A stretch of 41,977 bases of DNA from a virus (Duplodnaviria; Heunggongvirae; Uroviricota; Caudoviricetes): positions 1-41,977 of the IMG/VR virus record IMGVR_UViG_2563366853_000004; one strand, written 5' to 3'. The translations under genes were made by a program, and so were the position numbers. This document shows, piece after piece, positions 40,157 to 41,977 of the stretch. The notes beneath the pieces were generated by a model. That model worked only from the letters and a program-made list of their open reading frames with translations, did not search any database and was not told the DNA's origin. Numbering within the stretch: position 1 is the stretch's first letter; the number at the start of each line of letters is the position of its first letter.

Positions 40157-40171
40157 GCTTTTTTATACTAA
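40157..40171. repeat. attR common core GCTTTTTTATACTAA, preceded by the lambda P arm
   Basis: Exact core repeat; upstream sequence (…CAGGTCACTAATACTATCTAAGTAGTTGATTCATAGTGACTGGATATGTTGTGTTTT…) matches the lambda P arm; downstream CTTGAGCGAAACGGG is the host attB arm. Confidence 0.9.
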
Positions 40172-40261: not shown

Positions 40262-40738
40262 TTAACTAAACATCGCAGTAATCGAGGCACTCGCCAGAGA
40301 GTGAAAATGAACGTTAAACCCGACCATCGCGCCGCTGGCACCTTCATCGACATCAATACGTTCTACATCCAGCGCGTGAACGGTAAAAATGTAGCGATGG
40401 GTTTCGCCTTTCGGCGGCGCTGCGCCATCGTACCCGGTTTTACCAAAGTCGGTACGCGTCTGCAAAACGCCGTCTGGCATAGCTACCAGACCAGAGCCAA
40501 ACCCTTGCGGTAATACGCGGGTATCAGCGGGTAAATTAACAACTACCCAGTGCCACCAGCCGGAGCCGGTTGGCGCATCCGGGTCATAGCAGGTGACAAC
40601 AAAACTTTTCGTTCCCGCAGGAACATCATCCCACGCCAGATGCGGTGAAATATTATCGCCATCGTAACCCATGCCGTTAAAGACATGACGATGCGGCAGC
40701 TTATCGCCATCGCGCAGATCGTTACTGATGAGTTTCAT
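40262..40738 (-). CDS. ybhB: YbhB (PEBP/RKIP-family protein), host gene flanking lambda attB
   Basis: 158-aa translation with a PEBP-like signature (…CYDPDAPTGSGWWHWVVVNLPA…); recalled as the gene to the right of attB. Confidence 0.85.
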   Translation of the reverse strand: MKLISNDLRDGDKLPHRHVFNGMGYDGDNISPHLAWDDVPAGTKSFVVTCYDPDAPTGSGWWHWVVVNLPADTRVLPQGFGSGLVAMPDGVLQTRTDFGKTGYDGAAPPKGETHRYIFTVHALDVERIDVDEGASGAMVGFNVHFHSLASASITAMFS

Positions 40739-40846
40739 TAGAATGCCTCCGGGAAACCTCGGCCTTCAGACCGGGGAGGAAAGGAGGCGGTTTTCCGACT
40801 AACTGTACTTTGCATAATCACATTTTCCTCTTTAGTATGTGAACAC

Positions 40847-41977
40847 ATGAAACGCGCATATAAATACCGGTTTTACCCGACAACTGAGCAGGCTGAGCTT
40901 TTAGCTCAGACGTTTGGCTGTGTGCGCTTCGTCTACAATTCCATCCTTCGTTGGCGTACCGATGCGTACTACGAGCGAAAAGAAAAGATCGGTTATCTAC
41001 AGGCCAACGCTCGCCTTACGGCGCTCAAAAAAGAGCCTGAATACATATGGCTGAATGATGTTTCCTGCGTTCCCCTCCAGCAGTCGTTGCGCCACCAACA
41101 AGCCGCCTTTGCTAACTTCTTTGCCGGACGAGCTGCATATCCGGCTTTCAAAAGCAAACGGCACAAACAGGTGGCTGAGTTCACTGCCAGCGCGTTTAAA
41201 CACCGTGACGGCGAGTTGTATATAGCAAAGAGCAAGTCGCCGCTGGATGTTCGCTGGAGTCGAGAATTACCATCTGCGCCGTCAACCGTTACCATTTCCA
41301 GAGATAGCGCTGGCAGGTACTTTGTTTCCTGCCTGTGTGAGTTTGAACCTGTATCAATGCCTGTTACCGCTAAAACGGTCGGCATTGATGTGGGCTTAAA
41401 AGATTTATTCGTCACCGATACCGGATTCAAAACCGACAATCCCCGCCACACCGCTAAATATGCGAAGCGATTAACGCTGCTACAGCGACGTTTAAGCAGG
41501 AAGCAAAAAGGCTCAAGAAACCGAATTAAAGCCCGCTTAAAGGTCGCCCGACTCCACGCGAAAATCGCCGATTGCCGGATGGACAATCTGCACAAGTTGT
41601 CCCGCAAACTGATTAACGAAAACCAAGTTGTTTGCGTCGAATCCCTCAAGGTGAAAAACATGATCCGCAACCCGAAGCTGTCTAAAGCAATAGCTGACGC
41701 AGGCTGGAGCGAACTTGTTCGCCAGCTCCAGTACAAAGGCAAATGGGCCGGGCGGTCAGTGGTCGCCATTGACCAGTATTTACCGTCCTCAAAATGCTGT
41801 AGTTGCTGCGGTTTCACCATGCAAAAAATGCCTCTTAATGTTCGTAAATGGCACTGCCCTGAATGCGGCGCAGACCATGATCGCGACATTAACGCGGCAC
41901 GTAATATTAAAGCTGCCGGGCTGGCAGTGTTAGCCCACGGAGAGCCTGTAAACCCTGAATCGCAGCACGCGGCTTAG
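40847..41977 (+). CDS. tnpB: TnpB (IS200/IS605-family OrfB; RuvC-like RNA-guided endonuclease)
   Basis: 376-aa ORF with N-terminal MKRAYKYRFYPT, RuvC-I-like GIDVGLKD, C-terminal zinc finger CCSCC…CPECG and RuvC-III-like DHDRDINAARNI; no tnpA nearby. Confidence 0.85.
   Translation: MKRAYKYRFYPTTEQAELLAQTFGCVRFVYNSILRWRTDAYYERKEKIGYLQANARLTALKKEPEYIWLNDVSCVPLQQSLRHQQAAFANFFAGRAAYPAFKSKRHKQVAEFTASAFKHRDGELYIAKSKSPLDVRWSRELPSAPSTVTISRDSAGRYFVSCLCEFEPVSMPVTAKTVGIDVGLKDLFVTDTGFKTDNPRHTAKYAKRLTLLQRRLSRKQKGSRNRIKARLKVARLHAKIADCRMDNLHKLSRKLINENQVVCVESLKVKNMIRNPKLSKAIADAGWSELVRQLQYKGKWAGRSVVAIDQYLPSSKCCSCCGFTMQKMPLNVRKWHCPECGADHDRDINAARNIKAAGLAVLAHGEPVNPESQHAA

Follow-up and report, generated by a model that had tools for sequence, protein, structure and literature searches.

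A tnpB-only insertion sequence between ybhB and bioA, very probably ISEc42, next to a prophage and independent of it

What is the tnpB gene that ends the IMG/VR virus record IMGVR_UViG_2563366853_000004, and does it belong to the prophage that otherwise fills this record? The record was analysed over its full length of 41,977 bp (the window), in which an earlier reading made from the letters alone (the sequence-only reading) had placed a stand-alone tnpB of the IS200/IS605 type at 40739-41977. The present analysis indicates that window 40739..41977 is very probably the left 1,239 bp of a complete copy of the insertion sequence (IS) ISEc42, which encodes TnpB together with a predicted omega-RNA and is independent of the prophage. 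The features that delimit the element are the following.

40734..40738, plus strand: TTCAT, the left flanking pentanucleotide, taken as the target or transposon-adjacent motif (TAM), from the K-12 comparison; its CAT corresponds to the ybhB ATG on the other strand.
40739..40846, plus strand: left end (LE) of ISEc42, 108 bp, from the K-12 comparison and the onset of similarity among relatives.
40847..41977, plus strand: tnpB (the gipA of E. coli), 376 aa, ATG to TAG, intact.
40262..40738, minus strand: ybhB (PEBP family), a host gene that is not part of the IS; its start codon abuts the element.

As the sequence-only reading had proposed, the window was compared with K-12, whose unoccupied ybhB/bioA site was used for boundary mapping, and was extended rightwards, in the genome MS20659 (L001), which matches the window at 100% identity (window position = L001 position + 34099). 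Relative to K-12, in which ybhB and bioA are spaced by 58 bp, the insertion is 1,291 bp long. It starts at window 40739, precisely the base that the sequence-only reading had given as the start, and extends 52 bp beyond the window; the window carries the first 1,239 of these 1,291 bases. With the junction marked by a slash, the K-12 empty site reads ...GAGTTTCAT/GAACCCTCCTTTCTTG (TTTCAT/GAACCC...), and the occupied site reads ...GAGTTTCAT/TAGAATGCC...GCCGTCAA/GAGCCCTCCTTTCTTG (TTTCAT/TAGAAT...GTCAA/GAGCCC). There is no target-site duplication and there are no terminal inverted repeats, the fixed features being the 5' flank TTCAT and the terminal TCAA. The right end (RE), read at L001 7879-7930 and closing with ...GTCAA, lies 58 bp ahead of the bioA stop codon, and the end of bioA lies 110 bp past the tnpB stop in MS20659. 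A single open reading frame (ORF) of the OrfB/TnpB type is present between the LE and the 52-bp RE. No tnpA was found within the element or adjacent to it, and ybhB and bioA directly flank it in L001, which bears out the IS1341-like arrangement and the location between ybhB and the bio operon that the sequence-only reading had described. In addition, both ends were confirmed by 80 related loci from reference genomes, in which the similarity starts directly after NTCAT or TTTAT and ends directly after TCAA, past which the loci all differ.

In a published survey, ISEc42 is listed as an E. coli element of the IS1341 group with an OrfB of 376 aa, a length of 1294-1295 bp, a left cleavage site TCAT and a right cleavage site TCAA, present in 165 copies in 164 genomes. 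All of these published descriptors fit the element in the window, the length being 1295 bp when the 4-nt TCAT is counted. The element belongs to the IS1341 (tnpB-only) group of the IS200/IS605 family.

The prophage ends before the element. The lambda-type att core GCTTTTTTATACTAA (attR) lies at 40157-40171, and the element is located 568 bp outside this core, beyond the host gene ybhB, in agreement with the sequence-only reading, which had placed it outside attR. That tnpB is a cargo gene (moron) of the adjacent prophage could be argued from the remainder of the window, which is prophage, and from the IMG/VR provirus calls that end at the tnpB stop, 18 in number; the 568 bp between the attR core and the element, and the overshooting of attR by these calls, argue against it. 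It is refuted by LF82, where attB is free of prophage, ybhC adjoins ybhB and the element is present at the same ybhB/bioA site. The IS is therefore independent of the prophage, and the chance that tnpB is phage cargo is negligible. The 18 provirus contigs in question (loci L091-L108) end exactly at the tnpB stop (41977), as the window does, and overshoot attR by ybhB and tnpB, so that an IS of the host locus can be mistaken for phage cargo. A further peculiarity of attB was seen in the CFT073 derivative NZ_CP051263.1 (L002 1-4600), where bla-TEM, a 5S rRNA gene, msbA and araC lie by ybhB; this is evidently an engineered integration and not natural variation.

The 376 codons of tnpB are uninterrupted, and the final three bases of the window are its TAG stop. 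The protein matches HTH_OrfB_IS605 (PF12323, E 8.8e-22), OrfB_IS605 (PF01385, E 6.8e-26) and the Cas12f1-like_TNB zinc ribbon (PF07282, E 2.5e-23), all well over the curated cut-offs; these three families define TnpB. The best natural match among solved structures is ISDra2 TnpB (8bf8/8exa/8h1j; residues 3-369, E 8.8e-75). According to the alignment offsets, the RuvC triad D181/E265/D347 corresponds to D191/E278/D361 of ISDra2, and the CCCC zinc finger C318/C321/C337/C340 corresponds to the zinc-finger cysteines of ISDra2, three of them (C331, C334 and C351) being named in the literature and the fourth (354) following from the alignment offset. The RefSeq entry is WP_000817269.1, "RNA-guided endonuclease InsQ/TnpB family protein". 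The ratio of nonsynonymous to synonymous substitution rates against relatives is 0.08-0.15, and the TnpB protein family is under purifying selection. The intact gene with RuvC motifs and a zinc finger that the sequence-only reading had described is therefore present: neither a frameshift, nor a missing catalytic residue, nor a downstream tnpA, each of which it had named as speaking against it, was found. It had not recognised ISEc42, the RefSeq annotation or the name gipA.

The 3' end of tnpB and the RE together are supported, by covariation, as encoding a structured omega-RNA scaffold, the parts of which are the following.

41912..41977, plus strand: omega-RNA scaffold as predicted from covariation, 5' portion, which coincides with the last bases of tnpB.
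41912-41917 with 41923-41928, plus strand: helix 1.
41934-41938, 41942-41946 and 41954-41957, plus strand: 5' arms of helices 2-4.
41960-41963 with 41969-41972, plus strand: helix 5.
Beginning at the tnpB stop codon, plus strand: 3' arm of helix 4.
The 52 nt beyond the window: helices 2-3 (3' arms), helix 6 (hairpin of the right end) and GTCAA as the last bases.
Directly after GTCAA, beyond the window, plus strand: the presumed guide, 16 nt, GAGCCCTCCTTTCTTG, by analogy with ISDra2.

The last 158 nt of the ORF and the RE from 22 relatives (62-100% protein identity; alignment A1) were aligned and analysed with RNAalifold and pair counting, which predicted six helices with 33 pairs, spanning L001 7813-7922. 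In this alignment, 94.9% of the cells are paired, as against 82.9% for shuffles and 39-48% after sliding the partners by 1-3 columns, and compensatory changes are seen in 22 of the 33 pairs, with 9.0 expected in shuffles; none of 500 shuffles reached the observed values. The 9 pairs of helix 6 are 94.4% paired, and 6 of them show compensatory changes. Folding the RNA and the ends as single sequences gave no significant result (z -0.6 to -2.3), and the claim of a structure accordingly rests on covariation. From helix 1 to TCAA the scaffold measures about 118 nt, about 66 of which lie within the window; the sequence-only reading was thus right that the right end is beyond the window, whereas the omega-RNA, which it had placed there wholly, begins inside it. 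Its expectation of an RNA-guided-nuclease-type protein with a guide RNA derived from the 3' end is in line with the ISDra2 alignment and with the covariation.

Two further observations bear on this region. Conservation at synonymous sites is highest in the final 25 codons of tnpB, consistent with an overlap with the omega-RNA, and other peaks exist. A candidate pseudoknot of 3 bp, between the helix-1 loop G(G/A)C and G(U/C)C at positions -5..-3, is compatible with 18 of 19 sequence combinations, including G-U, A-U and G-C variants, and the ISDra2 pseudoknot (PMC10097598) lies at a like relative position; the pairing involves few bases, TCAA is under constraint as a cleavage site too, and these data are no more than suggestive of a pseudoknot in the ISEc42 omega-RNA. 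At L001 7887 (element position 1248, 9 bp past the window), T is present here and C in CFT073, LF82 and most relatives; the T turns a G-C pair of helix 3 into G-U and the pairing is kept.

The LE also contains conserved structure. Its two helices are nested in the following way.

40745-40750 (GCCTCC) with 40783-40788 (GGAGGC): outer helix of the LE.
40757-40762 (CCTCGG) with 40771-40776 (CCGGGG): inner helix of the LE, nested in the outer.

These helices comprise 14 pairs, for which 90.7% of the cells are paired in 18 relatives, compared to 35-57% in slid controls, and the covariation score was reached by none of 500 shuffles. In a second left-end type, the outer helix becomes GCGC/GCGC through compensatory changes. 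Subterminal imperfect hairpins are therefore predicted at both ends of the element, the nested helices in the LE and helix 6 in the RE. The sequence-only reading had found only weak palindromic structure in the LE, a description that does not hold: judged by covariation, the LE carries a subterminal structure that is conserved, as is expected for this family, and not a weak chance palindrome.

These features would be compatible with a mechanism modelled on ISDra2 (PMC10097598) and on the Geobacillus elements of Meers et al. The K-12 comparison shows that the element inserted 3' of TTCAT, between the ybhB Shine-Dalgarno (SD) sequence and the ATG, without target duplication. By analogy with ISDra2, the last ~66 nt of the ORF and the 52-bp RE would give rise to an omega-RNA of ~118 nt, with the next 16 nt as guide. 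The complex of TnpB and omega-RNA would cut DNA in which TTCAT is followed by GAGCCCTCCTTTCTTG, that is, the unoccupied ybhB/bioA site, and homologous repair from the occupied copy would restore the element. We infer the production and processing of the RNA, as well as cleavage by ISEc42, from the same analogy. The sole natural match of the guide is the unoccupied ybhB/bioA site: a 43-nt unoccupied-site query with the exact guide target matched 824 genomes, 479 of them at at least 99% identity, and a query with the K-12-type allele, which carries a mismatch at guide position 3, matched 3,838 genomes. The element is already catalogued as ISEc42 and its gene already annotated in RefSeq as an RNA-guided endonuclease, the likely mechanism is that of a textbook TnpB/omega-RNA system, and in this respect the finding is known and ordinary and in itself matters little.

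The element was found at at least 95% identity in 342 of 5,426 complete E. coli genomes, including CFT073, Nissle 1917, E2348/69 and LF82, and always on the chromosome; the ybhB-tnpB junction was likewise present in 342 genomes, with a median of one place per genome. In E. coli, it is a vertically inherited single-copy insertion with no sign of recent movement. Strain BH100N (NZ_CP025703.1) is the sole genome in which two places match the element and its left end, and the second place could be a transposed copy or a segmental duplication. A sensitive search of the 5,426 genomes with the 108-bp left end, aimed at an autonomous partner, returned ISEc42 and one weak plasmid match, and no tnpA-bearing element that shares the ISEc42 left end was found among these genomes. 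Relatives occur at at least 27 different sites, including P1-like phage-plasmids. In Endozoicomonas and relatives (L035-L061), the TnpB clade is multi-copy, with at least 14 loci in one chromosome, and because it is multi-copy there the family is actively mobile in Endozoicomonas; the copies there contain an extra stem-loop within the omega-RNA region.

Several points weigh against the reading of the element as an ISEc42 copy with a working TnpB/omega-RNA system. The name ISEc42 was assigned by published descriptors, and the element was set beside the ISfinder entry by description only. Without a cognate TnpA there is no excision, and a retention function has nothing to act on. Helix 6 could equally be a single-stranded DNA hairpin for a TnpA, the 5' end of the omega-RNA was set solely by where the covariation starts, and an Rfam scan at a permissive threshold gave no matching family, with a chance snoRNA match (E 0.43) as its sole result. 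Because the E. coli copies are 99.7-100% identical to one another, the intact ORF within E. coli is not by itself proof of selection. Finally, a 14-bp frameshifting deletion in tnpB is present in 2 genomes at ybhB/bioA, in the following alleles.

L004 3109-4225 (strain 33F4) and match H83: frameshifted tnpB alleles.

Some of these points would also fit an element that has lost movement, is inactive and is too young for decay. The missing neighbouring tnpA, the failure to find another element with this left end in the 5,426 genomes, the single copy per genome and the existence of frameshifted alleles are in keeping with such an inert relic, and the near-identity of the copies makes their lack of decay uninformative. 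However, the ORF and its catalytic residues are intact, as are the two ends and the six RNA helices, the sole difference in the RE from CFT073 and LF82 (position 1248) keeps the pairing as G-C is replaced by G-U, and close relatives have clearly moved recently, to P1-like plasmids, Gifsy-1 and many chromosomal sites. We consider an inert relic unlikely, and a complete ISEc42 with its TnpB/omega-RNA remains the preferred reading.

The tnpB of ISEc42 is the gene termed gipA in the literature on adherent-invasive E. coli (AIEC) and Salmonella. The "Peyer's patch-specific virulence factor GipA" of Gifsy-1 was retrieved from the phage collection with the P1-like copy and its flanks as query, and the TnpB of the window is identical to it at 325 of 376 residues (86%, full length). 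LF82 carries the identical protein (WP_000817269.1) at ybhB/bioA. In the LF82 genome paper, gipA is reported in LF82, 536, CFT073 and E2348/69 and not in UTI89, APEC O1, S88 and MG1655; this distribution agrees with ours for the strains checked here, CFT073, E2348/69, LF82 and MG1655, and the element is shown to be present in a subset of genomes that includes B2 strains named in that paper. Reviews report that gipA is induced by bile salts and inside macrophages and has a role in Peyer's patch colonisation, in LF82 and Salmonella, and one 2013 paper notes that GipA is TnpB-like. No paper that ties gipA to RNA-guided nucleases was found in the literature searched.

These reports raise the possibility of an exaptation, in which tnpB now serves the host in virulence or colonisation, or as an RNA-guided regulator, and is fixed and intact for this reason. 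The single-copy, vertically inherited and intact state in the genomes inspected, with two frameshifted alleles among 342 genomes, would agree with exaptation, as would the published induction and colonisation role and the identity of the protein with that of LF82 and its 86% identity with Gifsy-1 GipA. Nevertheless, the RuvC triad and the zinc finger are intact, the full transposon ends and the omega-RNA structure are kept, and the sole possible guide aims at the element's own empty site. According to a review, moreover, the association of gipA with AIEC is unconfirmed in other collections and is probably phylogenetic. The deletion phenotypes could be polar, as the element carries the ribosome-binding site (RBS) of ybhB and, in Gifsy-1, that of tail gene U. 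We therefore hold exaptation to be very unlikely, and favour the ISEc42 reading here as well. A nuclease-dead regulator of the TldR type was also considered and was rejected, as the RuvC triad and both transposon ends are intact. Nuclease-dead exapted TnpB homologues have lost RuvC catalytic residues and the transposon ends.

The position of the element relative to ybhB raises a separate question, that of its effect on translation. The IS lies between the native SD sequence of ybhB, AAGGAGGG, which is now past the right end, and the ybhB ATG. The first 12 nt of the LE, taken on the strand of ybhB, read GGAGGCATTCTA-ATG and would provide a new SD sequence with a 7-nt spacing.

40746..40750, minus strand: GGAGG, a putative SD sequence supplied by the LE for ybhB, 7 nt upstream of the ybhB ATG.
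Window 40734-40750; L087 2391-2405 and 3680-3686; L005 3886-3900: cases of start-codon adjacency.

We infer from this sequence that the LE supplies a replacement SD for ybhB. On the ybhB-sense RNA, the GGAGG of the LE is predicted to pair with GCCUCC further upstream (the outer helix). The abutment of a start codon and the SD from the LE recur at pro (P1-like copy) and at tail gene U (Gifsy-1). The Gifsy-1 insertion split an ATGA overlap of stop and start codons, and the TCAA of the right end restores a TGA to gene Z. With the RBS of the neighbour located on the element, published gipA deletion phenotypes need a polar-effect control.

Start-codon adjacency was then counted among relatives, whose left ends were located solely by similarity to CAGAATGCCTCC, giving 27 independent flanks from 226 loci in three collections. 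NTCAT precedes 24 of the 27 flanks (26 after a 1-nt correction). For 19 of the 24 scorable insertions, the CAT starts an opposite-strand ORF of at least 100 aa, compared to a background, determined in the same loci and 67 kb of LF82, of 21% for TCAT sites in general and 10% for TCAT sites that lie outside long ORFs (binomial P 2.5e-9 against 21% and 2.1e-15 against 10%). SD-like motifs were present at -8 to -13 in at least 13 of the rebuilt empty sites. Ten of the abutting ORFs tested are full-length members of known families, and in most of these the Pfam match starts near the N-terminus. The TAM TCAT is the complement of ATGA. The start-codon pattern was not seen for elements with a TTTAT TAM, and no description of start-codon adjacency was found in the literature searched.

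That elements of the ISEc42 type seek start codons, and come to sit between an SD sequence and its ATG or in an ATGA overlap, is possible, with the balance somewhat against it. The adjacency may reflect either target choice or the survival of harmless insertions. If targeting or adaptation is involved, the adjacent gene would come under the translational control of the element (pro in P1, ybhB in the window and tail gene U of Gifsy-1), and the phenotypes of gipA deletions would be effects of neighbouring genes or of an RNA-guided nuclease and not those of a dedicated virulence protein. A transposon that limits or exploits its impact on a host gene through targeted adjacency would be unusual.

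Some sequence features touch the expression of tnpB itself.

Window about 41327-41476 and 41537-41671: raised synonymous-site conservation in tnpB, well upstream of the covariation-supported omega-RNA.

In these segments (codons 161-210 and 231-275), conservation is 0.70-0.85 versus about 0.5, and an internal promoter, a longer precursor RNA and recombination are the candidate explanations. The right part of the LE (window 40814-40846; L001 6715-6747) contains a weak plus-strand pair, TTGCAT-N17-TAGTAT, which ends about 8 nt ahead of the tnpB ATG, and there is no SD sequence for tnpB; this promoter-like pair and the missing SD suggest that the tnpB mRNA may be nearly leaderless. On the minus strand of the LE, TTCACA-N18-GATTAT faces ybhB, and its reading as an outward promoter is a suggestion only. 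A scan for promoters and terminators was no richer than shuffled sequence, with 2 promoter-like sites against 1.3 expected.

The P1-like phage-plasmids contain a relative with 81% DNA identity and 86% protein identity, located between prt and pro. This relative (L005 4003-5185) is present in 46 E. coli records, and phage P1 (L090) has the empty site, which reads ...CAGTCAT/TATCGTTTCC. It is probably the published ISEc90. The guide of this copy would match IS-free P1/P7 genomes and could act in plasmid competition.

Compared with known systems, the element in the window shares with ISEc42 the host species, the tnpB-only layout, the 376-aa OrfB, TCAT and TCAA, and a number of about one copy per genome, and no difference was detected. 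The ISEc90-like P1 copy also has the TCAA right end and 376 aa, and is inserted 3' of GTCAT at the start codon of pro, whereas its left-end sequence and its location (prt/pro) are different and it resides on a mobile replicon. The Gifsy-1 GipA copy has the same ends as ISEc42 and is also placed against a start codon (tail gene U), whereas GipA is regarded in the literature as a virulence factor. With ISDra2, the common features are the TnpB architecture with the D-E-D triad and the CCCC zinc finger, the derivation of the scaffold from the tnpB 3' end and the right end (116 nt in ISDra2 and ~118 nt here), right ends of TCAA and a TAM that follows the 5-nt pattern TTNAT; the candidate pseudoknot of ISEc42 would lie at a relative position like that of the ISDra2 pseudoknot. 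Conversely, a tnpA of its own is present in ISDra2 and missing from ISEc42, the TAM reads TTGAT in ISDra2 and TTCAT in ISEc42, and the TnpB of ISDra2 has a C-terminal extension of ~30 aa that is missing in that of ISEc42.

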